From positions 944,472-976,471 of the forward strand of contig NZ_JACVOV010000001.1 of assembly GCF_018882245.1 (NCBI RefSeq): 32,000 bases of DNA. Direction: 5' to 3'. This document shows, piece by piece, positions 5,242-22,999 of this stretch. This stretch comes from Polynucleobacter sp. AP-Capit-er-40B-B4. GTDB lineage: Bacteria; Pseudomonadota; Gammaproteobacteria; Burkholderiales; Burkholderiaceae. A program made the position numbers and the translations under genes. Positions within the stretch are counted from its first letter, which is position 1. Every line of letters starts with the position of its first letter. The notes beneath the pieces are model-generated. The model was not told where the DNA came from, made no database searches, and saw nothing but the letters and a program-made list of their open reading frames with translations.

Positions 5242-5441
5242 AAATATTTTTCGATGTTTGACAGTTGTAAACATTAGCTCAAAGCTTCTCTTCACAGCGC
5301 CGTTCAATTCGCAGAAATATCTGCGGCACTCAATAAAAAAATCACACACATAATTTTGTTCGCAGAGTATTGCGTGGGATTTTTGCGACGATAAAAAACT
5401 AATCGTCGTCCAAGTAGGCGTTTGAAAACATACTTGCGTGT

Positions 5442-6656
5442 ATGAGTTCGCTACAACAATTATTCACAACACAGTTTGATGCAAACACTATTAAACAAGT
5501 AAAGCTGATGGACGGCAAAGCCTTGCTGTATAAGCGTCCGCAGTCATCACAGTGGCAAGTGCGATTTAAGTTGGCAAACAACAAGTGGCATAGCACGACA
5601 ACAAATACTACTGACATAGAGCAAGCAAAGATAAATGCGATTGTAATATATGAAACAGTAAAAATAAAAACAGACGCTGGCTTGGCAATCACTACGAAAA
5701 CATTTAAGCAGATTGCGTTAGATGAAATTGCAAATATGAGTAGAGCATTGAATAACAACATTGGTCGTCGTTGTTATAGAGATTATATTTTTGCAATCAA
5801 TAAATATCTCATTCCTTTTTTTGGCGCCTACGAAATAGAAAACATTACAACAGAGATGCTTGCAGATTTTGATGCGTGGCGAATTACTGAAATGAATAAA
5901 GTACCGATGGCAAGCACGAAACGCAATCACGCAAGTGCATATATTCGTGTTGTGAATTTAGCGAGAGAGCGTGGCTATGTTGCACACAATCGTGCTGTGC
6001 CAATGTTAGACAGCAAAGGCAAGCGTAGTCAGCCTCGCCCAGCTTTTAGTAAAGAAGAAATTATTGATTTGATAAGTTATACAGAGACTTGGGTAAGGAG
6101 TAGCTATACAGAACGCACAAAACTAATGCGAACGCTGTGTGTTGCTTACATAGAATTTTTGGTAAACACTGGAGTTAGACACGGCACAGAAGCACTACGC
6201 TTGCGTTGGAAACACTTGCAGTGGCATTGGATAGGCAATAAAAAATATTTGCGTGTTTGGGTAAGTGGCAAGACTGGTCCACGCTACCTAATTGCTAAGC
6301 ACGAAGTAATCAAAGTATTTGAGCGTCTAATGCGTTGGCATAAGTTGGACTACACAAACTTAAATGGACTAATTGAAGCTAAGTTAGACAAAGCCATCTT
6401 TTGTTTGCCTGACAACACGCAGATAAGCAATATGGAAAATATATTTAGAAACTTAATGGTGCGAAGCAGTATGCGTAAGGATAGTGGTGGCTTAAACCGA
6501 ACGCTGTATAGCTTGCGTCATACCTACGCTACTTTTGCGTTAGCAAGCGGCATTGATATACATACGCTTGCTAAGCAAATGGGAACTAGCGTGAATATGA
6601 TTGAACGGCACTACAGCAAAATGACAGCAACAATGGCAGCAGAGAGATTGGCATAA
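5442..6656 (+). CDS. int: Tyrosine recombinase / island integrase (I1)
   Basis: 404 aa. Catalytic contexts are NTGVRHGTE (Arg), LYSLRHTYATFAL (His-x-x-Arg region) and IERHYSK (Tyr). It is colinear and gap-free with 17097..18311, at roughly two-thirds identity by eye. Confidence 0.9.
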   Translation: MSSLQQLFTTQFDANTIKQVKLMDGKALLYKRPQSSQWQVRFKLANNKWHSTTTNTTDIEQAKINAIVIYETVKIKTDAGLAITTKTFKQIALDEIANMSRALNNNIGRRCYRDYIFAINKYLIPFFGAYEIENITTEMLADFDAWRITEMNKVPMASTKRNHASAYIRVVNLARERGYVAHNRAVPMLDSKGKRSQPRPAFSKEEIIDLISYTETWVRSSYTERTKLMRTLCVAYIEFLVNTGVRHGTEALRLRWKHLQWHWIGNKKYLRVWVSGKTGPRYLIAKHEVIKVFERLMRWHKLDYTNLNGLIEAKLDKAIFCLPDNTQISNMENIFRNLMVRSSMRKDSGGLNRTLYSLRHTYATFALASGIDIHTLAKQMGTSVNMIERHYSKMTATMAAERLA

Positions 6657-6700
6657 CAATGTAATATTGGTTATCTGCTTACTTTTTATATATGTGACTT

Positions 6701-7387
6701 ATGGCACGCTTTAATAACGAGACACGCAAGAAGCGTATTAAAGAGCTAATGCGTATGTTGGAAAAAGGATTGGATGTTTCGCCGCGTGACTTTAATAATG
6801 CGGTTGGCAAAGACTTTGCAAAACTATACAAACAGCGTTGGGCTGAGCAACAAGAGTTGCGTGAAATAAAACCACCGCAAGAAGTAAAAGAGTATGAGCA
6901 AATGCTACAAGAAGCAGTGATGTGGCACGGAAAATTGGATAGCTATAGCGGACGCAATCCCAAAGTTGGCAAAGTAATTGTCAATCGCATTAAAAAAGCA
7001 GACGAGATTAAAAATAAGACTGACGGCTTATTTGAGCGAGCATACGAAAAATTACAAGAAATTATTAGCAAAGACAAAACATTGGCAGTATGGTTTGACA
7101 GAGATATTGATTTTAGTTTTGACAGCGATATAAGTTTAGATAGCGATGGTATGCCACGCTTGATTACAAGTAAGAGTGCGAATAATTTGGCACAAGGACG
7201 ATTACAGCAATTGCACGGATGGAAAACAAAAGCACAAGTGAAGTTAGATGTAATGGCATTAGCGTTAGAGGAATTGGTAAAGCAAGAACGCACAGCAGAA
7301 GAAATTGAAGCAGAGTTAAAACAAAACCAACAACAAGCAGAGAAGTTAAAAGGAATGCTTGCTAACTTGAAGAAGCAAGGCAAGTAA
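6701..7387 (+). CDS. Hypothetical coiled-coil protein (I1 cargo)
   Basis: A 228-aa ORF rich in K/E/Q. I recognise no family and see no clear SD. Confidence 0.5.
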   Translation: MARFNNETRKKRIKELMRMLEKGLDVSPRDFNNAVGKDFAKLYKQRWAEQQELREIKPPQEVKEYEQMLQEAVMWHGKLDSYSGRNPKVGKVIVNRIKKADEIKNKTDGLFERAYEKLQEIISKDKTLAVWFDRDIDFSFDSDISLDSDGMPRLITSKSANNLAQGRLQQLHGWKTKAQVKLDVMALALEELVKQERTAEEIEAELKQNQQQAEKLKGMLANLKKQGK

Positions 7388-7511
7388 GGATGGTTTGGCT
7401 GACTACACAGCTAAAAAACCTACACATAAAGCCCACTAGCCATAAGCCTTTTATATGTATGTTTTTCGACTGTGTGCCTGACCATCAAATCCTTGCCAAC
7501 CAAGTAATCCA

Positions 7512-8096
7512 TCACACCACAGCCAAATTCTCCACAGCGTTTCTCATAAGCTCACTATTGCAGTCGATATAGCATTGCACACTACTAAGTGCTTTATGTC
7601 CGCTTAATCCCATAATCACTCTTACGCCGATACCTTTGTTTGCAAGCGTGGTTATGAAGGTACGACGCGACGAATGTGAGCTTGCTCCATCCAACCCAAC
7701 ACGCTTATACAAATAGTGAAAGTGCTGTGTAAGCGTATTTGCCGTAAAGCCGTCGCTATCCTTCTTTTGACTATAGAAGAACTTATTGCTTGGATTTGAG
7801 TTGGCATATACCTTTACGTATTGCTGTAGCTCTTTTCGTAACTTCTCGTTCACAAATACCGTTCTTGCTTCATTAGTCTTTGTATTCTCTGCCAATAAGC
7901 GTATTTCATTCTTTATGTTGCCTTCGCTATCAACAACATCTTTAATTCTCAAACTTGCTACCTCGCTGACACGCATTCCCGTATTAAACATAATTAACAC
8001 TAACGCTCTATTGCGTTGTGAGTGTTTTCTTGTTGAACAGTAATCAAGTACTTTACGGATTTCTGTGCTGTTTAGAACCTTTGCTTGCTTAGTCAT
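7512..8096 (-). CDS. Small catalytic-domain-only tyrosine recombinase (FimB/FimE-sized), I1
   Basis: 194 aa if started at ATG 8096, which has AAGGA 7 nt upstream; the track's start at 8189 adds 31 aa that are absent from the I2 paralog. Motifs are NTGMRVSEVASL (Arg), HSSRRTFIT (His-x-x-Arg), GH and Y in VQCYID. It is homologous to 19902..20468. Confidence 0.8.
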   Translation of the reverse strand: MTKQAKVLNSTEIRKVLDYCSTRKHSQRNRALVLIMFNTGMRVSEVASLRIKDVVDSEGNIKNEIRLLAENTKTNEARTVFVNEKLRKELQQYVKVYANSNPSNKFFYSQKKDSDGFTANTLTQHFHYLYKRVGLDGASSHSSRRTFITTLANKGIGVRVIMGLSGHKALSSVQCYIDCNSELMRNAVENLAVV

Positions 8097-8404
8097 AACT
8101 TTTTCCTTCTTTAACCAAATGTTTGCTAAGCGTTTAATGTATTTTCTTTTGTATCTTTCTGCGACCGTTTCGTGTGTGTATGCTGTCAAATTAAATTCTT
8201 TCCAATAATCAATGAGATATGTAGGTTTTGACGAGAAACCAAAGCTTCTTTGTATTTCCTTACATATAACTATTTATTGATAGTGTTGGATTTTGACTAC
8301 AGAAATACGCAGACTTGCGTACAGCGTCTATACGCTGTTTGAGCACATCTCTGCTGTATTGCTATTCACTGTCACTCGTTAAGTGTTTATAGCGTGGGTT
8401 TGAG

Positions 8405-9448
8405 GTGCTGTTTGACAAATTAAACGATTGGGCAGAGTATAAAAATATGACAAACACTAATACTGACTTAAATCTTCGCTACAGACGCTTGTTTGAAACT
8501 GCACAAGATGGCATTTTGATATTGGAATTTGAAACAGGAAAAATTGAAGATGTAAATCCATACCTAATACAGATGCTTGGTTATACAAAAGAAGAGCTTG
8601 TTGGTATGGAGTTGTGGGAAATTGGTGCAATGGTTGATAAAAGTGCGTCCATTAAAGCCTTTGCTGTATTACAGAAGGACGGCTATATTAAATACAACGA
8701 TTTACCATTACGCACAAAAGATGGAAAAATTATTAGCGTTGAGTTTGTAAGTAATGTATACGGTGTAAATGGCGACAGAGTTATTCAATGCAACATTAGA
8801 GACATTACAAGCAGAAAGAATGCTGAAAGTTCTTTAATCCGCTATCAACAAGCTCTCGCACTCAATATGTATCAGGTTGTGGAGGCATTGACTAAAGTTA
8901 TCGTAGCGAGAGATGCATACACTTACCAACATCAATGTAGTGTTGCACACTTGTGTGTTGCAATTGCTACAGAAATGAATTTACCAATCAATCTGATTGA
9001 AGGATTAAAGCTAAGTGCGTTGATACACGACATTGGCAAGATTGCTGTGCCAGCAGAAATTTTAAGCAAGCCAACCAAATTAGAATCTTTCGAACTTGAA
9101 GCATTGCATAGACACGCACAAACTGGTTTTGATATTGTTAAGAAAATAAACTTCGAATGGGCACTTGCACAAACCATCTATCAACATCACGAACGACTTG
9201 ATGGCAGTGGTTATCCCAATCACTTAAAAGGCGATAGCATTATTAAGGAAGCAAGAATATTAGCTGTAGCTGATACTGTTGAAGCAATGTCTCACGCTCG
9301 TCCGTATCGTCCTGCAATTGGTATAGATGCGGCATTGCAAGAAATTGAGAATGGCAAAGGAAAGCTATTTGATGCTGAGGTTGTTGATGCTTGCTTAAAG
9401 TTGTTTAGAGAAGATGGTTATCAATTCCCCCCCCCCCATACTAAATAA
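8405..9448 (+). CDS. PAS-domain HD-GYP cyclic-dinucleotide phosphodiesterase
   Basis: The N-terminal PAS region reads LFETAQDGILILE...VNPYLIQMLGYTKEEL. The HD-GYP signature is LIHDIGK ... HHERLDGSGYP. The start is GTG 8405 or ATG 8447. Confidence 0.85.
   Translation: MLFDKLNDWAEYKNMTNTNTDLNLRYRRLFETAQDGILILEFETGKIEDVNPYLIQMLGYTKEELVGMELWEIGAMVDKSASIKAFAVLQKDGYIKYNDLPLRTKDGKIISVEFVSNVYGVNGDRVIQCNIRDITSRKNAESSLIRYQQALALNMYQVVEALTKVIVARDAYTYQHQCSVAHLCVAIATEMNLPINLIEGLKLSALIHDIGKIAVPAEILSKPTKLESFELEALHRHAQTGFDIVKKINFEWALAQTIYQHHERLDGSGYPNHLKGDSIIKEARILAVADTVEAMSHARPYRPAIGIDAALQEIENGKGKLFDAEVVDACLKLFREDGYQFPPPHTK
9427..9437 (+). repeat. Homopolymeric C11 tract inside the last 8 codons of the HD-GYP gene
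   Basis: Counted directly: TTC CCC CCC CCC CAT ACT AAA TAA. Confidence 0.95.
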
Positions 9449-9456
9449 TTCTAATG

Positions 9457-9798
9457 CTAGTTATCCAAATGTCCTTGCTTAAACTTGGCAATAAGCTCGT
9501 CTAAATCTTTTGCTGTTTGGTGAGAAGCATTAGCACACATAATAAGTGCTTCATTCTTAGTAAGCATTGCCATATCCGCAGTAATGCTTGCGGCTTGTGT
9601 GGATAGTGTGGCAAATTGTTCTATGAGTTTTGCTTCGTCAGTAAATCCTTTTGCCAAAACAAATAGCTGTTCAGCGTTCATATTTAATCTATCTCGCACT
9701 ATCCCATATGATGTGCGTAGATTCTCTACTTCGTGCGTAAGAGCAACTACTCTATCTAATAGCTTTTGGGTATATTCACTAATTTGATTTTCAGTCAT
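9457..9798 (-). CDS. Hypothetical helical protein
   Basis: A 113-aa ORF with a strong SD (AAGGAG 8 nt upstream of ATG 9798). It is convergent with the HD-GYP gene. Confidence 0.6.
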   Translation of the reverse strand: MTENQISEYTQKLLDRVVALTHEVENLRTSYGIVRDRLNMNAEQLFVLAKGFTDEAKLIEQFATLSTQAASITADMAMLTKNEALIMCANASHQTAKDLDELIAKFKQGHLDN

Positions 9799-10170
9799 AT
9801 GAAACTCCTTTCTTTCATAGTAACTCAGTTATTCGAAGCAAGCTACTTCGTTGCTTGCTGTGTCTTCGCTAAAGCTATCGCTTTCGCTCGTCACATTTCC
9901 TTCGGCTCATTATTGATTTGCTTTTGCTTTGTTGTTTGACTGATTTTGGAGTAAACAACGGCTATATGCGACTTAAAGAAGTAGCATTGATAGTCGTCGC
10001 TTGTATGTAATGTTCTGATTCCATCGCATACAACTGTAAAAGAATTTAACGAGAGACGAATGTATTAAAACTCTCAACCAGTTTTCGCATTGATTTGCTA
10101 AACAGTAATTCTGCGGCTCGCTCATATGTATCGCAACCTTTACAGCAATTGCAATACGAGCACGAAGTCA

Positions 10171-10512
10171 TTAGCCGTTATATTCCACTTCGTGTTTTTG
10201 TCCTTTGTTATCGCAATGACTTATTTGCGTGTGCTGTCTAAATAATTTTCTGTTCGTCCGTTTGCCTAAATTGAGCACCTTGTAAGCCATAGCTCTACAA
10301 GCCTTGTTCTGTCTTGCTCTTATCTGCACGGTTTTTGTATATGTCGTTAGTAAATCGCGTTCGTCGCTGTTTAACCATTCTGCGTGATGTTTGAGTAAGT
10401 TTGTCGCAACTATCTGTGCTTGCTGTAAGCATAAGTCCACTCTGTCCATATGCTTTATTGCAATACCGTTTTGCTTTAACCAATCATTTGCTACTTGTTC
10501 GTCATTACGCAT
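10171..10512 (-). CDS. Hypothetical protein (start uncertain: ATG 10512 or TTG 10590)
   Basis: The open frame is 420 nt and plausibly helical. Neither candidate start has an SD. The equivalent region of I2 has no counterpart. Confidence 0.4.
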   Translation of the reverse strand: MRNDEQVANDWLKQNGIAIKHMDRVDLCLQQAQIVATNLLKHHAEWLNSDERDLLTTYTKTVQIRARQNKACRAMAYKVLNLGKRTNRKLFRQHTQISHCDNKGQKHEVEYNG

Positions 10513-10656
10513 ACAAATATTTATCAACAACCAAATATTCCTTAATATTTGCTGTCCATTTCTTACATATGACTGGGTATTGCACGGCAAATTCAGGTTG
10601 TTCTCGTAGCGTTTCCGAAACTACAGTAATTGAACTTACTTACAAAGGAGATTGAT

Positions 10657-11097
10657 ATGAGTACATTAGATGGATTAAAACTTAGCACAGCAAAAAAACC
10701 AGCACATATACCAGCAGTCGTATTTCGTCGCAATAAGCTGTCTAATAAACTTTGGGAGCAAATCGAGCTTGCTAAGAGCCAAATCAACGGCACTAGCTTT
10801 GCTGTTAAAAAGTTTCGCACAGTAAAGGATAAAGAAACTGGTTTGCGTAAAAGTGTGGAAGTAAACAAAAGGTTGAGAGAGTGGTGGTTTAAAAATGATG
10901 CTGGCAAAGTCTGCGTCAGCATTAAATATGGCAGTCAGCTTATTGAGTTGGCAAAAGGTAAACACAGCGTAGAGTGCGACACAGCACAAGGTTTAATTAA
11001 AGCGTTAGAGCAAATTAAAACGGCTGTGGAGTTGGGTGAGCTTGATACGCAGATTGCAACAGCAAGCGTGAATTTGCGTAAAGGATTTGGAAAGTAA
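10657..11097 (+). CDS. Conserved island protein A (146 aa), right-end module gene 1
   Basis: ATG 10657 has AAGGAG 6 nt upstream. From this start the protein is the same length as 21618..22058 and about 70% identical by eye (KKP.H.PA.V.RRNKLS.KLWEQI.LAKSQ..GT.F.V.KF.T.KDKETGLRK). Confidence 0.8.
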   Translation: MSTLDGLKLSTAKKPAHIPAVVFRRNKLSNKLWEQIELAKSQINGTSFAVKKFRTVKDKETGLRKSVEVNKRLREWWFKNDAGKVCVSIKYGSQLIELAKGKHSVECDTAQGLIKALEQIKTAVELGELDTQIATASVNLRKGFGK

Positions 11098-11144
11098 ATT
11101 CTCGCTGTAGTGTCGTGCTTGGCACGGTACTACTAAATACTTGT

Positions 11145-11291
11145 ATGCACAAATACCGAGCAACAGTTAAAGCAAGCGGACTATGGACAGAAACAATTGT
11201 GTTTGCACAAAATCAAGCACAAGCATACGCATTGTTTAAGTCCATCTTCGGTGCCGCCAACGTGCCCCACCAGCCGCAACAAATTACTTGA
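11145..11291 (+). CDS. Conserved island small protein B (48 aa), below the ORF-track cutoff
   Basis: The translation is MHKYRATVKASGLWTETIVFAQNQAQAYALFKSIFGAANVPHQPQQIT. The paralog at 22104..22250 has the same length, with mostly synonymous or conservative differences. The upstream CTAAATACTTGTATG is conserved. Confidence 0.7.
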   Translation: MHKYRATVKASGLWTETIVFAQNQAQAYALFKSIFGAANVPHQPQQIT

Positions 11292-11301
11292 GAAAGCCTA
11301 T

Positions 11302-11496
11302 ATGCTTATTAGAGAAGTTGAACAGAGGATTAGTTACAGCGTGCCCAACCCTAGCAAGCCTCGCACACCACAACAAGCACGCTTAGACGCATTAAAAACG
11401 CAGAAAGACAATGTCAGCCGAGCGTTAGACACGGAGCGTAAGCGGCAGAAGGTGGCAAAAGCACAGCAGAATTTAACGAAGGCAATGTCTGCGTAA
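11302..11496 (+). CDS. Conserved island small basic protein C (64 aa)
   Basis: This is the internal ATG of track ORF 11197..11496. The K/R/Q-rich sequence (PQQARLDALKTQKDNVSRALDTERKRQKVAKAQQNL) parallels 22253..22417 (PEQARLKSMRDRVKRDQEAVKAERVRQKIKAGQQEL). Confidence 0.6.
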   Translation: MLIREVEQRISYSVPNPSKPRTPQQARLDALKTQKDNVSRALDTERKRQKVAKAQQNLTKAMSA

Positions 11497-11615
11497 GCAG
11501 GAAAAGCAGAACACCGTTAAACAGGATTAAACATCCTTAACTGCCGTAGGATTAAGCAAATACAAGGCGATTGAGTACAGTTGCACACATTTGTGTAGCT
11601 TGATTACAGTTTCAT

Positions 11616-11670
11616 TTATAATTCCAAGTCTTGGCCTGGTAGCTCAGTCGGTAGAGCAGAGGATTGAAAA
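11616..11670 (+). repeat. att repeat copy 2: island-borne TATAAT box plus 5' 38 nt of tRNA-Phe, now orphaned
   Basis: Identical to 5187-5241 and 22907-22961. It is preceded by the island-specific CAGTTTCATT, also found before copy 3. It is followed by CGTAGG rather than the tRNA 3' half. Confidence 0.9.
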
Positions 11671-11833
11671 CGTAGGATAGAGGACTAAAACAGTTCTGCA
11701 CATTGGGTCTAAGCTGGTTGCGACCCACCGCCCTACAAGCACCGAATCTCGTGGCTCGCAGCGGTTTCAAATATTTCCCGAATGGCATCAACAGTTTTGC
11801 ATTGAGGGTCTCGACTAAGGGTATTATTTGTAA

Positions 11834-13693: not shown

Positions 13694-13704
13694 AGGAGTG
13701 ATTC

Positions 13705-14707: not shown

Positions 14708-14819
14708 TTATACCTAGTCCTTTTTAGACCGACCGCTTTGTTAAAAAAATAGAGTTGCAGTGAGAGGAAACCAAGAGTAAATTTTTCTTTAACCAACTTT
14801 AAAAGGACTAAGTTTCAAC

Positions 14820-15524: not shown

Positions 15525-15534
15525 GAGTACGTCT

Positions 15535-15930: not shown

Positions 15931-15946
15931 ATTAGTGCTGCCGCAA

Positions 15947-17005: not shown

Positions 17006-17071
17006 AATATTTTTGGTAAATTAATAATTTGTAATAAATTGCCCAAACCCTAATCTGAATTTAAGCTAGTA

Positions 17072-17092
17072 AGCGTCCCGTAACTAGACGCT
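17072..17092 (+). repeat. Family-A palindromic repeat, copy c
   Basis: AGCGTC CCGTAACTA GACGCT, ending 4 nt before the TTG start of int2. Confidence 0.85.
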
Positions 17093-17096
17093 CGAC

Positions 17097-18311
17097 TTGC
17101 AAAACTTTAATCAGCTCTTCCCTGCCAATACAAACCAAGCTTCACCCAAAACAATTTCATTGTTGCGTGGTGAATTAACTCTGTTTCGGCGCCCCAAAAG
17201 CAATAAATGGCAATGCCGTTTTAAGCTACCCAATGGGCAATGGCATGCAGCTTCAACCAATACAGAAGATTCTGATCTAGCTCAAACACAAGCAATCGCC
17301 ATTTACGAAACTGTCAAAGTTAAAGTTGGTGCGGGCTTAGCTGTTGTCACCAAAACTTTTAAGCAAGTGGCTTTGGATGAACTAGCCAATATGGCGCAGG
17401 CTTTACACAATAAGCTGGGTAAGCGTATCTATCGTGACTATGCCTTTGCTATTAACAAATACCTCATTCCCTTTTTTGGGCAATATGAGATTGGTCAAAT
17501 TACCAATGAACTATTGGGTGACTTTGAGTCTTGGCGCATCTCACAAATGGGCAAGATTCCCATGGCAAGCACCAAGCGTAATCACGCTAGTGCGTATATC
17601 CGCGTGATTAATCTAGCCCGTGATCGTGGCTATATTGGATTAAATCAAGCCGTGCCATTGTTAGATAGCAAAGGCAAGAAAAGTCAGTCCCGCCCTGCTT
17701 TCACGGCAGAAGAGATTAAGGAGTTATTAAGTTACACAGAGACTTGGCAAAAGAGCTCCTATACGGCGAGAACAGCATTGATGAGAACGCTATGCGCCTA
17801 TTACATAGAGTTTTTGGTTAATACAGGTATTCGACATGGAACGGAGGCATTGCCGATAAGGTGGAGGCATTTGCAATGGCATTGGATTGGGGAGAAGAAA
17901 TACTTAAGGATTTGGGTATCAGGCAAAACGGGCCCAAGATATTTGATAGCAAGAACTGCTGTGGTGAAGGTATTAGAACGAGTAATGAAGTGGCAGAAGT
18001 TGCCTTACTCGGGGCTCAACGCAGTGATTGAGGCTAAATTTGATGCTTTGATATTTAGATTGCCAACAGGCGAGCAAATTAGCAACATGGAAAATATCTT
18101 TCGTAACTTAATGGTTCGTAGCAACATGAGGGTTGATGGAGGCGGTCAAAATAGAACCTTGTATAGCTTGCGTCATACGTATGCCACATTCGCCTTAGCA
18201 AGAGGGGTTGATATCCACACTCTGGCTAGGCAAATGGGCACTAGTGTTGGCATGATTGAGCAACATTATTCAAAACTCACTCCGATGATGAATGCTGAGA
18301 AGTTGGCTTAA
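17097..18311 (+). CDS. int: Tyrosine recombinase / island integrase (I2)
   Basis: 404 aa with a TTG start. It carries the same catalytic contexts as Int1 (NTGIRHGTE, LYSLRHTYATFAL, IEQHYSK). Confidence 0.9.
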   Translation: MQNFNQLFPANTNQASPKTISLLRGELTLFRRPKSNKWQCRFKLPNGQWHAASTNTEDSDLAQTQAIAIYETVKVKVGAGLAVVTKTFKQVALDELANMAQALHNKLGKRIYRDYAFAINKYLIPFFGQYEIGQITNELLGDFESWRISQMGKIPMASTKRNHASAYIRVINLARDRGYIGLNQAVPLLDSKGKKSQSRPAFTAEEIKELLSYTETWQKSSYTARTALMRTLCAYYIEFLVNTGIRHGTEALPIRWRHLQWHWIGEKKYLRIWVSGKTGPRYLIARTAVVKVLERVMKWQKLPYSGLNAVIEAKFDALIFRLPTGEQISNMENIFRNLMVRSNMRVDGGGQNRTLYSLRHTYATFALARGVDIHTLARQMGTSVGMIEQHYSKLTPMMNAEKLA

Positions 18312-18622
18312 CCCAAGCAGGCAATAACATCACCTGTATAGCAAGGTAATAGTGTTACTTCTGCGTTAGCAAGATTGATAAAGGGATTGCGCTTTTTAAG
18401 CTCTGTACCGAACCATGCTAACTTAGCGTTAGCACGATAAGCACCTTTGAACTTACGAATACTGTCTGAGCCGTTGACCAGTTGAATCACACCGCTAAAT
18501 TTGGCGCCCCGATACATGGCATTGATAACCTCAATGGCAAAGACATCTTGGACATGTTGTAGCTTACTTACTTGAGCTTTAGTTGATGTGTGTGGAATCA
18601 TGGTTGTAGATAGTTTTTTCAT
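18308..18622 (-). CDS. Hypothetical protein
   Basis: A 104-aa ORF. Its stop overlaps the int2 stop in the palindrome TTAA (18308-18311). I recognise no family. Confidence 0.45.
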   Translation of the reverse strand: MKKLSTTMIPHTSTKAQVSKLQHVQDVFAIEVINAMYRGAKFSGVIQLVNGSDSIRKFKGAYRANAKLAWFGTELKKRNPFINLANAEVTLLPCYTGDVIACLG

Positions 18623-18701
18623 TTGAATTTCTTTCTTAATTGAATTGAGGAAATTGTTCTATTTGGAACAACAGCTACCCCTGCAGTGGTAGCGGTCGTT
18701 T

Positions 18702-19655
18702 TTAAACTGTAATAACCGCCTTGTCGGCGGGCTTGGTTACACGTTCCGCGACTTTATAAACGGCATTAGCTTCTGCACCTAGATCCCATAAATCAGGCTT
18801 GAGATCAACATTTTTGCTGCTTTGCTTGATTTGCTCATAGCGTTGTTCACGACGAGCTTGCACAAACTCCCCAGCTTCTTTGTTGATAACAAACTTGATT
18901 GGTAGGCGGGCGGAGATTTCAGCTAATGCTTTTTCCATCGCACGCCAATCAGTGTCATCAGGTTTTTTGGTAAACAAGAGCTTGGCAAATACATACCCAG
19001 AGTTTTTGCTATCAAAGCTTAGGGGCTCTTCAATCTTGTTGATGTCCTTTGTGCTTTTGACTAGCTCATCTAGCTTTGCGCCTGTCAGCTTATTTAAGGC
19101 ATAACCTTTTTTTAGGCATTCCTCAAATGCATCTGCTGGAATTTGAGTAATTAGGTAGATATTTGTCCAGCTTGCTGGTAGCTGATCCACATATTGAATA
19201 AAGCGTGGATATACCCGACCAATAGCAGAGAACTTACGAACAGTACTGCTGTAGTCCTTAAGCCCCACTTCTTCGCAGAAGGTTTTAAATTGAAACCTAT
19301 CTAGCGATTGCTCTGCTTCATATACTACGCGACACATCTCTAAAGTACTTCGAGCAGTTTTCTCCACACCAGCTTTGAACGCAGATACATATTCTTTGCG
19401 CTCTTTTGGAATGATTGCTGTTGTATCTGCTGTGGCAGCCTCCAAGCTGAGCTTGCGCTCGTACTGAACAAGACTTGTACTAACAGATTTTGGCGAGGGT
19501 TTTACTTCGCCTTCCACCTCAAATACCTCATCAAAAGTTGATGAATCTTCTGTGATGATATTGGCATTCATCTTGCGAATATCAACAGAGGGTGTGGATA
19601 CCTCATTTGTTGATTGATTTGCCAACTGTTTTTTTACTTCAATTACTTTTTCCAT
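18702..19655 (-). CDS. Hypothetical protein (disordered N-terminus, structured C-terminal half)
   Basis: A 317-aa ORF with a strong SD (AAGGAG upstream of ATG 19655). I cannot assign a family with confidence. Confidence 0.6.
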   Translation of the reverse strand: MEKVIEVKKQLANQSTNEVSTPSVDIRKMNANIITEDSSTFDEVFEVEGEVKPSPKSVSTSLVQYERKLSLEAATADTTAIIPKERKEYVSAFKAGVEKTARSTLEMCRVVYEAEQSLDRFQFKTFCEEVGLKDYSSTVRKFSAIGRVYPRFIQYVDQLPASWTNIYLITQIPADAFEECLKKGYALNKLTGAKLDELVKSTKDINKIEEPLSFDSKNSGYVFAKLLFTKKPDDTDWRAMEKALAEISARLPIKFVINKEAGEFVQARREQRYEQIKQSSKNVDLKPDLWDLGAEANAVYKVAERVTKPADKAVITV

Positions 19656-19841
19656 TTTTACAACTCCTTAAAAATCAACTTGGCGTTAGTGACGAAATTG
19701 TCTGTTTGCTTTGTTGATGGAGTCACTGTACATTTTTGCGATTTTTCGAACAAATCACCGCGTTGTTTTATTTCCTTGACACAAAAATACGAAAAATTAG
19801 AGCCATATAAATAAAGGCTTTGCGGGCGATTATATTTTTGT

Positions 19842-19884
19842 AAAAAATGGCTGCATTTTTACGATTAAAAAAATGCAGCCATTT
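19842..19884 (-). terminator. Intrinsic terminator downstream of the small recombinase gene
   Basis: A perfect 16-bp stem (19845-19860 / 19869-19884, AAATGGCTGCATTTTT / AAAAATGCAGCCATTT) with an 8-nt loop. On the minus strand it runs into a T-tract. Confidence 0.7.
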
Positions 19885-19901
19885 AATTCTTAGATTTTTT
19901 A

Positions 19902-20468
19902 TCAAATTAATTCCACTGCATTTCGTTTCATTTCATCTGAAGCATCGATGTATTTCATCGTGACGGCAATATTACGATGTCCTGCTAATGCAGCAAGTAC
20001 ACGAACACCGACACCTTTTGAGGCTAAGGAGGTTAGAAAATTCCTTCTTCCGCTGTGGCTGCTTGCGCCACTAATTCCCGCATTACGATAGGTGTGATAG
20101 AACCACTGACATAATGAATTGGCGGTAAATCTTAGGCGTGTATTGGTGTGGAAGAGTGGAATGTCCGGATATTTGGCATGACGTGTTTTTAAGTATTCCT
20201 CCAGTTCGGCGCGTAATTTAGTAGATAAGAAAACTGTCCTCGGATATTTGCCTTTGGTTTGTTCGGCAGATAGACGAACTTCTGCCTTGACTGTGCCATC
20301 TGTATTTAAAACATCACCCATTGTTAGTGATGCAATCTCCGCAACACGAAGTCCTGCAAGAAAGCTTGTCATGAGTAGTGCCCTATCGCGTTCGGGGTAT
20401 TTTTTGGTAGATACATAGCGCAGCACTTGATCTAGTTCTGCTTGGGTAAGGGTTTTTGCTTGAGCCAT
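19902..20468 (-). CDS. Small catalytic-domain-only tyrosine recombinase (FimB/FimE-sized), I2
   Basis: 188 aa. Motifs are LAGLRVAEIASL (Arg), HSGRRNFLT (His-x-x-Arg), GH and Y in MKYID. The N-terminus AKTLTQAELDQVL...ERDRALLMTSF has the same layout as FimB/FimE. Confidence 0.8.
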   Translation of the reverse strand: MAQAKTLTQAELDQVLRYVSTKKYPERDRALLMTSFLAGLRVAEIASLTMGDVLNTDGTVKAEVRLSAEQTKGKYPRTVFLSTKLRAELEEYLKTRHAKYPDIPLFHTNTRLRFTANSLCQWFYHTYRNAGISGASSHSGRRNFLTSLASKGVGVRVLAALAGHRNIAVTMKYIDASDEMKRNAVELI

Positions 20469-20579
20469 TTGTAAAACCTTTCATAAATAAAAAAGCTCTA
20501 TTAGTGTGTTTTCTTATTGCCAAATGGTCGACCAAAATTTGCCAAAACAAGATCTTCCAAAAATCAATGACTTACGCCT

Positions 20580-20611
20580 CCACATAAGAAAAGTATGATT
20601 TTCTTATGTGG
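20580..20611. promoter_or_regulatory. Perfect 13-bp inverted repeat upstream of the I2 small recombinase gene
   Basis: CCACATAAGAAAA-GTATGA-TTTTCTTATGTGG, located 112-143 nt upstream of ATG 20468. Its function is unknown (operator, recombination site or hairpin). Confidence 0.4.
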
Positions 20612-20679
20612 TTTGCGTTATTAATATTTATGAGTATTTCGTGGGAAATAGACGACAAATTGGGGTTTGGGGTCAAAAA

Positions 20680-20752
20680 AGCCCTACACGCTGTTTGATT
20701 GGCGTCCGGCAACTAGACGCTGTGAAGCTTGAAGACCGTTGCTTGTAGGGCT
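20680..20752 (-). terminator. Compound hairpin/terminator after the 151-aa gene, enclosing family-A copy d (20701-20721)
   Basis: The outer 9-bp stem AGCCCTACA / TGTAGGGCT encloses GGCGTC CGGCAACTA GACGCT. The minus strand continues with TTTTTT. Confidence 0.55.
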
Positions 20753-20777
20753 GATTTGAACCGACTTTACTTAACAA

Positions 20778-21233
20778 CTACCTGGTATTTAGATCTACAT
20801 TGCTTGCAACAAATACGGGCTTATTGGCGCCTATAGCTTTGCAGTGATAGGCTTTTAAGTCCCAGTCATCTTTTGTTCCATTTAGAACGTCATTAATTTC
20901 AATATGTACTTCGCCTGTTGTTTGTAAGTAGATGCAATAACCATCAACTAGTTCCTTAGATTTGGTTAAGGGTTCGTAATGCACAATCCACGAAATCACT
21001 AAATCTGGCGTACTGCCTATGCCGCAGGCATCTAATTTCTTAAGTATTCTTATTTGATCGTCTGATTTGGCAGTATGTTGAAATTGTTCATATTCGTAAA
21101 AGTCCACTAGATACTTTTGGTTTGGATTATGAAGTTCTACCGATCCGTTATAGATGGCTCGTCTAAACAAGCCTTTGCCAAATGGGGTGTTGTACTTCTC
21201 ATTGATAAAACCTCTGATTGCTATTTCTCTCAT
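20778..21233 (-). CDS. Hypothetical protein
   Basis: A 151-aa ORF with a strong SD (AAGGAG upstream of ATG 21233). Confidence 0.6.
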   Translation of the reverse strand: MREIAIRGFINEKYNTPFGKGLFRRAIYNGSVELHNPNQKYLVDFYEYEQFQHTAKSDDQIRILKKLDACGIGSTPDLVISWIVHYEPLTKSKELVDGYCIYLQTTGEVHIEINDVLNGTKDDWDLKAYHCKAIGANKPVFVASNVDLNTR

Positions 21234-21266
21234 TTTTATTCTCCTTGTGTTCTAAATTGAGTTCTC

Positions 21267-21472
21267 GTTGCTAGTTGCTTTGTTGGTTACAAGAGAGATC
21301 AGAAGAGATCAGTTGCAGTAAAAGTCGCAGATCTCAAAAGAGAAGTTACGAAGTTGTGTTGCTTAGTCAGAGTTACTCATTTGCCACTACGAGTAACTAG
21401 CTAGCAACTACTCAAACTCAACCTTGCAACTTCTTTTTCTTTATGCGACATCTACTTTGTAACCAAGCAACT
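21267..21472. promoter_or_regulatory. ORF-free iteron-like region
   Basis: GTTGC occurs four times forward (21267, 21274, 21312, 21358). A central 8-bp inverted repeat AGTTACTC/GAGTAACT sits at 21371-21398. GCAACT occurs three times reversed (21404, 21426, 21467). There is also a tandem AGAGATCAG x2 at 21294-21312. Confidence 0.5.
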
Positions 21473-21617
21473 CGCAAAAATATTTATCTCTCTTAAAGAA
21501 AAACCGCTAATTTCCTGTCCAAAATGCGGCAAAAGAAGTGATTTGGCAAAAAGAGGTCGACCAGATAAAGAGATCGAAAACAAACTGCTTATGCCCATTA
21601 ACTAATAGGAGAAAACA

Positions 21618-22058
21618 ATGAGCGCATTAAGTAGCTTAAAACTAGTAGCAGTTAAAAAACCAACCCATATGCCTGCAATCGTGGTTCGTAGGAATAAGCT
21701 TTCTAGCAAGCTATGGGAGCAAATCCAGTTAGCAAAGAGTCAGATGGACGGAACGCCCTTTGTTGTTACCAAGTTCAAAACCATTAAAGACAAAGAAACA
21801 GGTTTACGCAAACAAGTAGAGATGCCCAAACGACTAAAGCCTTGGTGGTTTCAGTCAGAACAAGGCAAAGTCTGCGTTTCAGTCAAATACGGAAGTTGGA
21901 CTATTGAGCTGGCAAAAGGCAAACCCAGTGTGGAAGTGGCTAGCGGAGCAGAACTTGTCAAAGCATTGGAATCTATTAAGACGGCTGTTGAAGCTGGCGA
22001 GCTCGACGCCCAAATAGAAACAGCTAGTGCTAGCTTGAGGAGTGGATTTAAGCGATAG
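21618..22058 (+). CDS. Conserved island protein A (146 aa), I2 copy
   Basis: SD AGGAG. It is a paralog of 10657..11097. Confidence 0.8.
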   Translation: MSALSSLKLVAVKKPTHMPAIVVRRNKLSSKLWEQIQLAKSQMDGTPFVVTKFKTIKDKETGLRKQVEMPKRLKPWWFQSEQGKVCVSVKYGSWTIELAKGKPSVEVASGAELVKALESIKTAVEAGELDAQIETASASLRSGFKR

Positions 22059-22065
22059 CAACATA

Positions 22066-22093
22066 AGCGTCCAGCTACTAGACGCTGGACGCT
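22066..22093 (+). repeat. Family-A palindromic repeat, copy e (extended to a 10-bp stem)
   Basis: AGCGTCCAGC TACTAGAC GCTGGACGCT, containing AGCGTC CAGCTACTA GACGCT. It lies between module genes A and B. Confidence 0.85.
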
Positions 22094-22103
22094 AAATACT
22101 TGT

Positions 22104-22250
22104 ATGAAGCGATATAAGGCAACAGTCAATGCAGCAGGAATGTGGGTAGAGACAATTCTCTATGCACAGAATCAAGCTCAAGCCTATGCACTCTTCAAGG
22201 CAATCTTCGGGAGCGGTAATGTTCCACATCAACCACTACAGATTGGTTAA
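22104..22250 (+). CDS. Conserved island small protein B (48 aa), I2 copy
   Basis: The translation is MKRYKATVNAAGMWVETILYAQNQAQAYALFKAIFGSGNVPHQPLQIG. It is a paralog of 11145..11291 and is not in the ORF track. Confidence 0.7.
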   Translation: MKRYKATVNAAGMWVETILYAQNQAQAYALFKAIFGSGNVPHQPLQIG

Positions 22251-22252
22251 CT

Positions 22253-22417
22253 ATGAGATTCGATGAAATAGCCCCAATTAAAGCCCTAAGCCCCGAGCAA
22301 GCAAGACTTAAATCAATGCGGGATCGTGTCAAGCGAGATCAAGAGGCTGTAAAAGCTGAGCGTGTGAGGCAAAAGATAAAGGCTGGACAGCAAGAACTTG
22401 GTAAAGTTGAGCTATGA
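22253..22417 (+). CDS. Conserved island small basic protein C (54 aa), I2 copy
   Basis: The translation is MRFDEIAPIKALSPEQARLKSMRDRVKRDQEAVKAERVRQKIKAGQQELGKVEL. It starts 2 nt after the stop of gene B and is not in the ORF track. Confidence 0.6.
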   Translation: MRFDEIAPIKALSPEQARLKSMRDRVKRDQEAVKAERVRQKIKAGQQELGKVEL

Positions 22418-22435
22418 CTTTTAAGGGCTTAAAAC

Positions 22436-22720
22436 ATGAAATTAATAGTTTCTAAAATCGTCGCCTCAGTTAATGAAATTGAGATTGATCTCAATGCCTC
22501 TAATTGGAAGCGAATAAAGGCGGAAATTGAGTCCGTCCAGGAGGAAGGGCGATGCGAGGATGTTGATGTAAGCTCGCAAAAGAAGTTTATCGACTGCTTT
22601 ATTGGCAATGAAGAATTGCATGCGGAATTATTTGATATTTTGGCGTCTAATGATTTAGGCGTAGAGGAGGTCTTTTTAGATTCATCAAACGAGACTTTTG
22701 AGGGAAGAATTGAGGGTTAG
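22436..22720 (+). CDS. Hypothetical acidic protein (I2-specific)
   Basis: A 94-aa ORF with no I1 counterpart. Confidence 0.45.
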   Translation: MKLIVSKIVASVNEIEIDLNASNWKRIKAEIESVQEEGRCEDVDVSSQKKFIDCFIGNEELHAELFDILASNDLGVEEVFLDSSNETFEGRIEG

Positions 22721-22743
22721 TAGTTGGCTCATAAGGCCTTAAA

Positions 22744-22782
22744 CTAAATTCAAGGCTTTGCAAAGCTCATAGAGCAGAGGAT
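22744..22782 (+). repeat. Decayed extra copy of the promoter plus tRNA-Phe 5' segment
   Basis: AAATTCAAGGCTTTGCAAAGCTCA-TAGAGCAGAGGATT aligns with TAATTCCAAGTCTTGGCCTGGTAGCTCAGTCGGTAGAGCAGAGGATT, with deletions. Confidence 0.6.
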
Positions 22783-22907
22783 TCCCATATCTCTACCAGT
22801 CGCCACCGTCGGCAGGATAGAACATCCCCACTCACCGTAGAGTCCAGCAAAATCAAGCAGAGTTGGCAACAGTAGGCACATTTAACAAGCCCACTTTCAG
22901 TTTCATT

Positions 22908-22913
22908 TATAAT
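22908..22913 (+). promoter_or_regulatory. Consensus -10 box (TATAAT) of the island-supplied tRNA-Phe promoter
   Basis: TATAAT ends 10 nt before tRNA position 1. The same box is present in all three 55-nt repeats. I could not identify a convincing -35. Confidence 0.5.
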
Positions 22914-22923
22914 TCCAAGTCTT

Positions 22924-22999
22924 GGCCTGGTAGCTCAGTCGGTAGAGCAGAGGATTGAAAATCCTTGTGTCGGTGGTTCGATTCCGCCCCGGGCCACCA
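22924..22999 (+). tRNA. tRNA-Phe (anticodon GAA), the only intact copy
   Basis: A 76-nt cloverleaf folded by hand. Acceptor GGCCTGG/CCGGGCC, D arm GCTC-AGTCGGTA-GAGC, anticodon arm GAGGA-TTGAAAA-TCCTT, T arm GGTGG-TTCGATT-CCGCC, discriminator A and an encoded CCA. Confidence 0.95.

Follow-up and report, generated by a model that had tools for sequence, protein, structure and literature searches.

Integration sites within tRNA genes reportedly fall into several sublocation classes, as distinguished by Williams in 2002. In the islands catalogued by Islander, a tyrosine integrase lies within the island, one end is marked by the intact tRNA gene and the other by a displaced piece of it in direct orientation (PMC4383910). 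The block of identity stops at the anticodon loop, and islands may stand in tandem arrays. A minority of them, 159 of 3919, have a fragment from the 5′ part of the tDNA (PMC4383910). The two tandem islands described here, I1 and I2, have all these marks. However, in I1 and I2 the 5′ half of the tRNA gene is replaced together with the −10 promoter box, and within one integrase clade the carried half switches between 5′ (tRNA-Phe, tRNA-Met) and 3′ (tRNA-Arg).

Tycheposons of Prochlorococcus and other marine bacteria (bioRxiv 10.1101/2020.12.28.424599) also resemble the present islands. Both have streamlined planktonic hosts and a tRNA-specific tyrosine recombinase that faces inwards from one end; the other end holds a conserved module of small size, and the adaptive or defence cargo in the middle varies. 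Tandem stacking and partial tRNAs are also common to both. In contrast to tycheposons, I1 and I2 lack the hallmark replication genes (primase, helicase, polymerase); their own hallmark module consists of a short second recombinase, a DUF6641 protein and two mini-proteins. Their host is a freshwater betaproteobacterium, and the likeness drawn here is one of layout. Relaxase-less IMEs, such as MGIs and the 'iOriT' islands (bioRxiv 10.64898/2026.01.13.699239), are likewise minimal, with an integrase but no conjugation, replication or capsid genes, and with evident transfer between hosts. I1 and I2 gave no relaxase match either. However, no oriT match was found in them, no helper element is known in their hosts, and MGIs and 'iOriT' islands do not feature a second recombinase or a DUF6641 operon. 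Minimal phage satellites (PICMI, bioRxiv 10.1101/2023.07.18.549517; P4-like elements; PICIs) are similar in that they measure about 6 kb, with a terminal integrase and a few small regulators, whereas I1 and I2 have no primase, replication gene or AlpA, and no link to the viral contigs searched. Finally, the short recombinase resembles the Xer family in its catalytic domain and residues, and the FimB/FimE invertases in its length. Unlike Xer, it has no N-terminal core-binding domain, and neither an invertible segment nor a dif-like site was found for it.

The window, that is, the whole stretch of 32,000 nt analysed here, comes from the freshwater bacterium Polynucleobacter. Its positions 5187–22961 hold the two islands, arranged in tandem 5′ of tRNA-Phe(GAA), with the following features.

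5187–5241, + strand: att copy 1, at the outer left of the array; the original −10 box (TATAAT), now displaced, and the tRNA-Phe 5′ half to the anticodon loop
5242–11615, +: island I1, complete, 6.4 kb, between att copies 1 and 2
5261–5275, +: I1 left-arm motif ACAGTTGTAAACATT, 20 nt past the att copy; candidate arm-type or accessory-factor site
5442–6656, +: int404 of I1, tyrosine integrase
6701–7387, +: 228-aa coiled-coil-like protein adjoining int, kept in some I1-type relatives
7512–8096, −: short tyrosine recombinase of I1, catalytic domain only; 194 aa with the probable ATG at 8096
8405–9448, +: PAS and HD(-GYP) signalling protein, I1 cargo
10171–10590, −: 139-aa ORF of I1, divergent from DUF6641; the I1-type position corresponds to that of the 151-aa ORF in I2
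10657–11097, +: DUF6641 protein of I1, 146 aa
11145–11291, +: 48-aa protein of I1
11302–11496, +: 64-aa basic helical protein of I1, homologue of the I2 54-aa protein
11514–11615, +: right arm of I1, with core-like site CAGGATTAAACATCC (11522–11536), CCGTAGGATT and ACAGTTGCACACATT (11577–11591)
11616–11670, +: att copy 2, I1/I2 junction
11671–22906, +: island I2, 11.2 kb, limits set by the att copies
11690–11704, +: I2 left-arm motif ACAGTTCTGCACATT, 20 nt past att copy 2
11834–17005: I2 left cargo; proteins of 248, 228 and 174 aa, TetR, 234 and 131 aa, and a CsgG-like protein of 375 aa
14015–14707, −: TetR regulator within the left cargo
17073–17091, +: hairpin GCGTC-N9-GACGC, 24 nt upstream of the int2 start codon
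17097–18311, +: int404 of I2 (int2), tyrosine integrase with a TTG start codon
18308–19655, −: 104-aa and 317-aa ORFs, kept in I2-type relatives
19902–20468, −: short tyrosine recombinase of I2, 188 aa, catalytic domain only
20525–20549, −: promoter/operator motif TTTGGCAAA-N-GGTCGACCA, ~57 nt ahead of the start codon of the short recombinase
20778–21233, −: 151-aa ORF of I2, divergent from DUF6641, in one orientation in all relatives
21539–21563, +: second copy of the promoter/operator motif, ~55 nt upstream of the DUF6641 start codon
21618–22058, +: DUF6641 protein of I2, 146 aa
22067–22085, +: hairpin right after the DUF6641 stop codon
22104–22250, +: 48-aa protein of I2; model beta-beta-alpha-beta, weakly like T7 Gp2 and YkzG
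22253–22417, +: 54-aa basic protein of I2, predicted single long helix
22436–22720, +: 94-aa acidic ORF of I2, in some relatives only
22806–22906, +: right arm of I2, with CAGGATAGAACATCC (22813–22827), CCGTAG and ACAGTAGGCACATT (22869–22882)
22907–22961, +: att copy 3; island-supplied −10 box and tRNA-Phe 5′ half
22924–22999, +: intact tRNA-Phe(GAA), its 5′ half overlapped by att copy 3
23009–23030: tRNA-Phe terminator, 3′ of the tRNA gene

Both islands are flanked by the 55-nt att block, whose three copies are identical. The block comprises the tRNA −10 box, 17 nt upstream, and the tRNA 5′ half, and its 3′ end coincides with the 3′ edge of the anticodon loop. Upstream of the att block that is joined to the tRNA 3′ half lies island DNA instead of chromosomal flank. 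Each arriving island would therefore replace the promoter and the 5′ half of the tRNA gene. Several decayed 5′ and 3′ tRNA fragments also lie around the locus.

An earlier sequence-only reading had described I1 and I2 as members of one island family with a shared att repeat, two recombinases, a three-ORF module at the right end and a homologous right arm of ~100 nt. Most of this description is borne out by the comparison of the two islands. Both int404 copies match Pfam Phage_integrase and are 68% identical at the protein level. The second recombinase of ~190 aa is encoded on the minus strand in both islands; the two copies are 46% identical, and the residues R-K-HxxR-H-Y are readable in them. 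In I1 its open frame extends to 8189 (7512–8189, a 225-aa ORF), and the true length is probably 194 aa. These enzymes are nearest to Xer catalytic domains, with a FimB/FimE-like length, and no target site was found when one was looked for. The module proteins of 146, 48 and 64/54 aa are 68%, 72% and 45% identical, respectively. The right arms share 69 of 99 aligned bases, including the sequence blocks named in that reading, and their alignment score of 29 is far above that of 500 shuffles (−13 ± 4.5, maximum 1); the blocks are also kept in more than a dozen other loci. At the DNA level the homologous parts are 67–69% identical, so the two islands are not a recent duplication, as had been proposed. 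Their cargo genes, also as proposed, are unrelated, with no blastp match between them. The reported lack of replication, transfer and capsid genes held in searches of Pfam, PHROGs, NCBIfam and PADLOC, the sole exception being a weak small-terminase match (E 0.003) of the 139-aa ORF in I1. These missing genes may point to a mobilisable or satellite lifestyle. Two points apply to I1 but not to I2, namely the integrase at the left end and the size of only ~6 kb. No copy of att precedes int2 and the att-bounded unit spans 11671–22906, so int2 is internal. The I2 left arm (11671–11720) is homologous to that of I1, and 5.4 kb of extra genes follow before int2.

None of the three module proteins had been recognised in that reading. 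Profile searches place the 146-aa protein in Pfam DUF6641 (PF20346) and phrog_31551 (E 8e-22), and its model (pLDDT 73) matches no known fold. The 48-aa protein weakly resembles T7 Gp2 (E 0.2), a match to a small and common fold. Neither profile nor structure searches gave Xis, AlpA or HTH matches among the module proteins. The operon encodes three small proteins, each basic with a pI of about 10, and in relatives the 48- and 54-aa proteins are fused into one, forming a family of 194 proteins. The regions upstream of the short recombinase and of DUF6641 share a promoter/operator motif, which is kept at −64 before DUF6641 in relatives. The hairpin after DUF6641 keeps its position in nearly all relatives while its sequence differs, and the spacing of the hairpin upstream of int2 is repeated in 7 related loci. 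We infer that the module may serve in excision (directionality) or regulatory control.

The backbone is not confined to this genome. A genome search seeded with the 146-aa protein returned 38 loci, most of them in Polynucleobacter, and 32 or 31 of these have enough flank for counting. In 29 of 32 loci the short recombinase is no more than 6 kb from DUF6641. Downstream of DUF6641, 26 of 31 loci have a 54-aa-like gene and 21 of 31 a 48-aa-like one; 20 of 32 loci include an integrase resembling int404. The same block also turned up in each of three lookups that started from integrase homologues. Thus the proposed two-recombinase family with its three-ORF module is real, and the module genes are linked to integrases among the searched genomes. 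The backbone recurs, but the conserved core is narrower: the short recombinase, the small divergent gene and the DUF6641-48-54 operon. This core is paired with at least three unrelated integrases in other genomes and is inverted relative to int in one locus, an arrangement that would fit hitch-hiking cargo too. It keeps a fixed att-proximal place and reads towards att, and true cargo varies around it. In two kinds of tRNA-Met(CAT) loci (integrases 60–68% identical), the att block again consists of the −10 box and the 5′ half ending in the anticodon loop. The tRNA-Arg(TCT) loci (49–56%) have the mirror layout, with a 3′ half starting at the loop.

I1 is 99.6–100% identical over most of its length to an island of another species (L026), while the flanking genes are only 78–85% identical; therefore the transfer was recent. 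A further island (L019) is 90–95% identical to I1, with a flank 81% identical. Among metagenome contigs the junctions are the same and the neighbours and cargo variable; in variants of I1 the PAS-HD(-GYP) gene is swapped for 447 nt. The near identity across species supports the mobility of I1. Neither a circular form nor an empty site was seen, the available runs consisting of assembled contigs. The short-recombinase region forms a mosaic patch within an otherwise identical island.

Several other explanations should be considered. The core block, from the short recombinase to the 48- and 54-aa genes, could be a self-contained cargo system (anti-phage, addiction or phase-variable) that was repeatedly picked up by islands of differing integrase type. 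Its varied integrase partners, the single inversion and the mosaic patch are consistent with this. Related islands also carry defence cargo (type I restriction-modification; SNF2/methylase/endonuclease genes), and the 48-aa fold is weakly like phage and host RNA-polymerase binders. However, none of the block proteins has a PADLOC match, the block is fixed in place and direction whereas true cargo varies, and its presence in both tandem islands and nearly every family member is unusual for cargo. On the whole, we find this explanation unlikely. It is unlikely that the islands are phage satellites, induced and packaged by a helper phage, with small proteins that redirect helper or host transcription and packaging. 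No DUF6641 relative was found by tblastn in 50,697 phage records, nor in IMG/VR contigs by two peptide patterns that reach close relatives only. Primase and replication genes, which the known families of satellites possess, are missing from the islands, and no phage integrase is more than 27% identical to theirs. The small size, the missing replication and transfer genes, the phrog_31551 match and the Gp2-like fold would nevertheless suit a satellite, as would the terminase match, although it is weak and restricted to the I1 type. Phage mediation has also been suggested as maybe frequent in the exchange of islands among Polynucleobacter (PMC5644125).

The short recombinase itself might be a FimB/FimE-type invertase that flips the ~1-kb segment between the 25-nt inverted repeats 20525–20549 and 21539–21563 as a module switch. 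It consists of the catalytic domain only, about 190 aa, NCBIfam FimB/FimE-type invertase models cover it in full (E 2e-9), and the 151-aa gene lies between repeats that are 80% complementary. Yet the orientation of this gene relative to DUF6641 is constant in every one of the 24 distinct relatives retrieved (23 besides that of the window), so there is no inversion polymorphism. Moreover, the repeats precede two start codons at an equal distance, an arrangement expected of duplicated promoters, the I1-type motif is not palindromic and no such inverted-repeat pair is present there, and Xer models outscore Fim models. We consider such a switch very unlikely. It is hardly credible that the islands are immobile remnants of old insertions, inherited by vertical descent only, even with the missing att copy beside the I2 integrase and the decayed tRNA fragments. 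For I1 this is already contradicted by its near identity across species between flanks of about 80%; the recombinases retain every catalytic residue, the three att copies are undamaged, and neighbours differ at the same junctions in metagenome contigs.

We think it probable that I1 and I2 are small, cargo-carrying, site-specific integrative islands with a control block, found in Polynucleobacter and related freshwater Betaproteobacteria. In the life cycle that we propose for such islands, the 404-aa integrase would cross over in the anticodon loop, with the anticodon stem providing inverted core sites. Assembly of the complex may be aided by core-like AGGATT sites and by ACAGT-N4-5-ACATT repeats, present in both arms, where motifs recur at fixed distances from att across loci. 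The arriving circle would take over the tRNA promoter and 5′ half, and both the former 5′ half and any island already in place would be shifted upstream; I2 would then be the younger arrival. The short recombinase, the small divergent gene and the DUF6641-48-54 operon would form a control unit of two transcription units under the common promoter/operator motif. The operon proteins may bind nucleic acid or RNA polymerase and set the timing of island excision, and the short Xer/FimB-like recombinase could be an auxiliary enzyme resolving tandem or multimeric forms. As the islands have no replication or transfer genes, they would have to exit the cell by a host or helper route, which may be a helper phage, a conjugative helper, vesicles or the uptake of free DNA.

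The two tandem islands I1 and I2 on the 5′ side of tRNA-Phe(GAA) belong to a coherent island family that has recently moved. The sequence-only reading had listed as their common parts an integrase of 404 aa (int404; int2 is the I2 copy), a second tyrosine recombinase of ~190 aa (below, the short recombinase), a right-end module of three ORFs, a right arm and a 55-nt att repeat. All of these are present in both islands. The integrases are 68% identical to each other at the protein level, the short recombinases 46%, and the module proteins 68% (146 aa), 72% (48 aa) and 45% (64 and 54 aa, respectively). The view that the homologues are diverged and the cargo unrelated also holds: DNA identity of the homologous parts is 67-69%, and comparison of the I1 cargo with the I2 cargo yields no match. 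The right arms agree at 69 of 99 aligned bases (score 29 versus -13 ± 4.5 in shuffled sequences); the sequence blocks claimed for them occur in I1 and I2 and are conserved family elements in an alignment of more loci. The features discussed are as follows.

5187-5241, 11616-11670 and 22907-22961: three mismatch-free copies of the 55-nt repeat
5204-5241 and 11633-11670: tRNA-Phe 5′-half fragments, same orientation as the intact gene
5242-11615: island I1 (6.4 kb)
11671-22906: island I2 (11.2 kb)
5442-6656 and 17097-18311: Pfam Phage_integrase matches of the two integrases
13706-13724, 13977-13995, 17073-17091, 20702-20720 and 22067-22085: hairpin GCGTC-N9-GACGC
20525-20549 and 21539-21563: inverted repeats around the 151-aa gene of I2
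22924-22999, plus strand: tRNA-Phe(GAA)

For I2 the backbone parts stand, but the integrase at the left end and the size of ~6 kb that had been ascribed to it do not. No att copy is found in front of int2, and 11671-11720, directly after the second att copy, is a homologue of the I1 left arm that shares its motif ACAGT-N4-5-ACATT. Relatives are built likewise: in a complete Polynucleobacter genome, an I2 relative begins with a 5′ half-copy, then 6.2 kb of cargo (catalase-peroxidase, LysR, Zip), a hairpin and the integrase, with the hairpin exactly 24 nt ahead of the integrase start codon. I2 therefore spans 11671-22906, with an internal integrase. The 5.4 kb between its left arm and int2 (17097) hold extra genes, namely for three unknown proteins, a TetR regulator and a CsgG-like protein. 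Several ORFs of 100-146 aa run antisense to integrase and cargo genes (for example, 5399-5761 and 6943-7383); because their translations are of low complexity and match no family, these long ORFs are probably not genes.

The module proteins had been described as unrecognised. This does not apply to the 146-aa protein, which belongs to Pfam family DUF6641 (PF20346; 45.7 and 53.4 bits versus a gathering cut-off of 27) and also matches phrog_31551. DUF6641 matches no known fold. A scan with the DUF6641 protein as query, in one genome per species, returned 38 loci, mostly in Polynucleobacter. The other hosts are a few Oxalobacteraceae/Burkholderiaceae MAGs and two Methylophilaceae chromosomes. One of the loci lies on an 8-kb contig binned as Legionellaceae, which may be mis-binned because its proteins reach 96% identity with Polynucleobacter ones. 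In 29 of the 32 loci with enough flank, the short recombinase gene precedes DUF6641 by no more than 6 kb, and in 27 of 36 a 151-aa or 139-aa gene (the I2 and I1 types) lies directly upstream and divergent. Downstream of DUF6641, a 54-aa type gene is present in 26/31 loci and a 48-aa type gene in 21/31. The integrase is of the int404 type (45-100% identical) at 20 of 32 loci and quite different (25-36%) at seven. Since the block is paired with either kind of integrase, the conserved core is the short recombinase, the small divergent gene and the operon of DUF6641, 48-aa and 54-aa genes, joined to different integrases. In one case the orientation of this block against the integrase is reversed. 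In a reverse lookup of three integrase homologues on long contigs, the short recombinase and DUF6641 adjoin in all three. The backbone therefore represents a real island family, as had been proposed, with synteny that recurs from both the DUF6641-seeded and the integrase-seeded search. A plasmid context for the module was considered and rejected: the Aeromonas IncP matches are short unannotated fragments, and the distant homologue of DUF6641 that an Azospirillum plasmid carries is again beside an integrase.

The only tRNA gene in the window is tRNA-Phe(GAA), which ARAGORN reports as intact. The 55-nt repeat consists of TTATAATTCCAAGTCTT plus the first 38 nt of this gene; it thus contains a perfect -10 box and the tRNA-Phe 5′ half, and its 3′ end coincides exactly with that of the anticodon loop (TTGAAAA). 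The two upstream fragments of the 5′ half are 100% identical to the gene and lie on the correct side. At the intact gene, the 5′ half and the -10 box are preceded by island DNA, so that island-borne sequence is predicted to restore a functional tRNA-Phe gene; the promoter scan found the perfect -10 box but no complete sigma-70 promoter. The DNA left of 5187 has 46% G+C and carries ordinary core genes (rsmB and genes for a sensor kinase and a response regulator); between the repeats, G+C is 39-41%. Each interval contains a tyrosine integrase, and I1 and I2 fit the Islander definition of tDNA-integrating genomic islands.

The same design recurs elsewhere. In several genomes, islands of 6.8 to 13.3 kb are bounded by the same tRNA-Phe 5′ half. 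Integrases 60-68% identical to int404 are found with this arrangement at two kinds of tRNA-Met(CAT) gene, where the att site takes in a -10-like box within a short stretch ahead of the gene, then the 5′ half, and ends in the anticodon loop. Integrases 49-56% identical to int404 show the mirror design at tRNA-Arg(TCT), where the repeat runs from the anticodon loop to the 3′ end and the intact tRNA adjoins the integrase. In one known class of tRNA att sites, centred on the anticodon, the overlap corresponds to the loop, and the symmetric stem supplies both core sites. Because the anticodon loop forms one edge of the identity block in every case (Phe, Met and Arg), the island att sites fit this class, from which the crossover position is inferred. 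Islands that displace a 5′ tDNA fragment are known but rare, accounting for 159 of 3919 in Islander (PMC4383910). The present family clearly exemplifies this rare mode, with the promoter and 5′ half of a tRNA gene being exchanged for copies brought by the element.

Sequence elements in the arms may serve this process. In both arms, ACAGT-N4-5-ACATT keeps a fixed distance from the island-internal att copies (20 nt downstream or 25 nt upstream of each), and its four occurrences in 5100-23100 are all at those positions. The arms also contain CAGGATnnAACATCC, and the right arm carries a core-like copy, CAGGATTAAACATCC versus GAGGATTGAAAATCC in the tRNA, plus a further AGGATT. These motifs are candidate binding sites for the integrase or accessory proteins. 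Only the att copy joined to the tRNA 3′ half has a complete core; new arrivals would therefore insert there, and I2 would then have come later than I1.

The best evidence for mobility is the comparison with locus L026 of Polynucleobacter sp. AP-Reno-20A-A9. Between the two species, core genes on the left flank are 78-85% identical (500-nt bins), but identity within I1 is 99.6-100% over 5500-7000 and 8500-11092. Around the short recombinase (7000-8500) there is a mosaic patch of 83-93%, which has been replaced by recombination within the otherwise nearly identical island. In a third species, island segments are 90-95% identical and the flank 81%. Cargo is also exchanged within an otherwise conserved I1-type island, because in three lake metagenomes the I1 backbone carries 447 nt in place of the PAS-HD and 113-aa genes (8404-9837; contig joints). 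In metagenome contigs the I1 right arm is also joined directly to the tRNA 3′ half. No circle or empty site was seen in these assembled sequences, in which a circle and a tandem junction look the same. The island at locus L011 (1475-14098) is a mosaic: its integrase and left arm match I1 at 95% identity, but its right-end module is nearer to I2 (80% at the DNA level). The two ends of the islands recombine independently. Remnants of 1.9 kb, lying between two tRNA-Phe 5′ half-copies and without integrase, are seen at L019 (2681-4659) and L001 (11661-13643); the latter retains fragments of DUF6641 and the 54-aa gene. These are decayed array members. Cargo at other loci includes SNF2 helicase, DUF4391, methylase and ResIII endonuclease genes with a WYL regulator (L041, 1-9941), type I restriction-modification (L043, 1-5007) and catalase-peroxidase, LysR and Zip transporter genes (L045, 3975-9897).

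The short recombinase has every catalytic residue, and its nearest relatives are Xer catalytic domains (PDB 4a8e, E 1e-12). The I2 protein has 188 aa, of which residues 6-179 form the Pfam catalytic domain, and it matches NF007370 and NF007371 over the full length. It has no N-terminal core-binding domain and in this differs from the two-domain recombinases of Xer/dif systems, whose target is a 28-bp dif-like site, whereas FimB/FimE likewise have none. This likeness in recombinase type, together with the inverted repeats around the 151-aa gene, would suit an invertible switch of the FimB/FimE kind. However, the 151-aa gene has the same orientation in all relatives, in contrast to a segment found in both orientations, and such a switch is unlikely. 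The repeats act instead as duplicated promoter elements: the short recombinase gene and the DUF6641 operon have a common motif, TTGGCAAA-N4-5-GGTCGACCA, ~55 nt ahead of the start codon, with the element GGTCGACC at these upstream sites and GGTYGNYC variants at the same place in almost all relatives. The recombinase gene and the operon are probably co-regulated. A sigma-54 promoter was considered for TGGCAAA-N-GGTCG, but the -12 element does not fit (by eye). The conserved element TCATTGATTnTTGGAAG upstream of the short recombinase was considered as a paired recombination site and rejected because each island has a single copy.

The GCGTC-N9-GACGC hairpins were also weighed as sites of the short recombinase, similar to pdif modules or attC. 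The five copies, versus 0.02 expected by chance, all lie in I2; I1 and the core flanks have none. Among relatives they are confined to I2-type islands, where they sit at gene ends and in fixed places: the integrase start has one 24 nt ahead of it, the DUF6641 stop has one immediately behind it, and another separates the 151-aa gene from the short recombinase. The stem shows compensatory changes. However, behind the DUF6641 stop nearly all loci have a strong hairpin whose sequence varies, and ordinary genes to the right of tRNA-Phe also end in similar hairpins. Since relatives thus have different hairpins at the same place, a terminator or attenuator is the simpler reading of GCGTC-N9-GACGC. 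The recurrence of a hairpin behind DUF6641 also suggests graded expression within the operon.

The operon products offer some clues to their role. The DUF6641 family comprises 1473 clusters at 50% identity, nearly always stand-alone proteins of ~146 aa; the domain fusions in this library look like truncated or chimeric gene calls and were set aside. The AlphaFold model (mean pLDDT 73) has a long helix, a six-stranded sheet and two helices, with no match below E 0.05 by Foldseek against PDB and BFVD or by phmmer and profile searches against PDB. We found no paper mentioning DUF6641. The 48-aa and 54-aa genes are fused in relatives into one protein of ~100 aa (L005, 10650-10955; L009, 11208-11552), a family of 194 proteins (including P0241-P0360), and because of this fusion the two proteins very probably act together. 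At L035 and L038 the order differs: the 54-aa type region leads, and a different C-terminal domain comes behind it. As modelled, the fusion (mean pLDDT 87) has a small beta-beta-alpha-beta domain and a basic helix of 40 residues. The top Foldseek matches of the domain are T7 Gp2 and YkzG, both RNA polymerase binders. The Gp2 match has a probability of 0.99 and a TM-score on the target of 0.73, but its E-value is no better than 0.2 and small folds of this kind are common, so that this likeness of the 48-aa domain in the model is a lead only. All three operon proteins have a pI of about 10. The preferred though loosely held hypothesis is that the conserved block is a regulatory or directionality unit with an auxiliary recombinase.

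Replication, transfer and capsid genes had been said to be absent. No ORF of I1 or I2 matches replication, conjugation, relaxase, capsid or packaging families in Pfam, PHROG and NCBIfam, and the statement needs qualification only for a 139-aa ORF with a weak small-terminase match (E 0.003), the sole packaging-related signal. DUF6641 has no relatives in 50,697 phage records (tblastn) and none in IMG/VR contigs by two peptide patterns that reach close relatives only. The closest named relatives of int404 come from Polynucleobacter; it is at most 27% identical to phage integrases and has no relative of solved structure. In build and ecology the islands are closest to tycheposons (bioRxiv 10.1101/2020.12.28.424599), with which they share a tRNA-specific, inward-facing integrase, a small far-end module with cargo between, tandem stacking and streamlined planktonic hosts. 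The end position of the integrase is matched by I1, whereas the I2 integrase is internal, and the tycheposon replication hallmarks (primase, helicase and polymerase) have no match in I1 or I2. Minimalism is common to the present islands, relaxase-less mobilizable islands (bioRxiv 10.64898/2026.01.13.699239) and PICMI (bioRxiv 10.1101/2023.07.18.549517). As to integrative mobilizable elements, the family searches, which cover relaxases but not oriT sites, give no relaxase match; unlike satellites (PICI, P4 and PICMI), the islands show no replication gene, and DUF6641 has no close relative on the viral contigs scanned. The mobilizable or satellite lifestyle suggested at first is a hypothesis. 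PMC5644125 reports Polynucleobacter islands that cross species, possibly via phages.

The 3′ side of tRNA-Phe has repeats of its own.

22955-23032, 26206-26283, 27200-27225 and 31232-31309: repeated tRNA-Phe 3′ parts with terminator
23080-23147 and 27380-27447: 68-nt repeat, 93% identical, after tRNA-Phe and one 3′ fragment
23123, 25999, 27377, 27423 and 28642: GTCGTTTAAAACGAC-type hairpins, in the 68-nt repeat and recurring after right-hand genes

The first 3′ copy is 78 nt long, 100% identical, and begins exactly at the anticodon loop; the 5′-type and 3′-type repeats therefore overlap in the 7-nt loop. The stretches between the 3′ copies lack an integrase and hold ordinary-looking genes (DUF2147, MipA, a hydrolase, DUF4118, MFS, LysR and others). 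Comparable arrays lie behind tRNA-Phe at L001, L018, L019 and L041. These stretches resemble cassettes without an integrase, or decayed islands, and may have been moved in trans. A combined proposal, which we consider rather improbable as a whole, is that the short recombinase, DUF6641 and the 48/54-aa proteins, one of them with a Gp2/YkzG-like fold, form a new control and dissemination unit, and that int404-type integrases also move the 3′-side cassettes in trans. Such a unit may act, for example, on host RNA polymerase and on tandem arrays. If this were true, an island without replication or transfer genes could excise and spread across species, and one tRNA gene would be a two-sided gene-capture platform in abundant freshwater bacteria.

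Polynucleobacter are among the most abundant freshwater bacteria, and their strains differ mainly by genomic islands. The family described here is a compact (6-13 kb), recently transferred vehicle for the movement of such islands, with cargo for signalling, defence (restriction-modification), stress (catalase-peroxidase) and transport. Its sole conserved genes encode the two recombinases and four small proteins without known function. Knowledge of what these small proteins do would give a function to the DUF6641 Pfam family and reveal the means by which an island that lacks replication and transfer genes passes between species.
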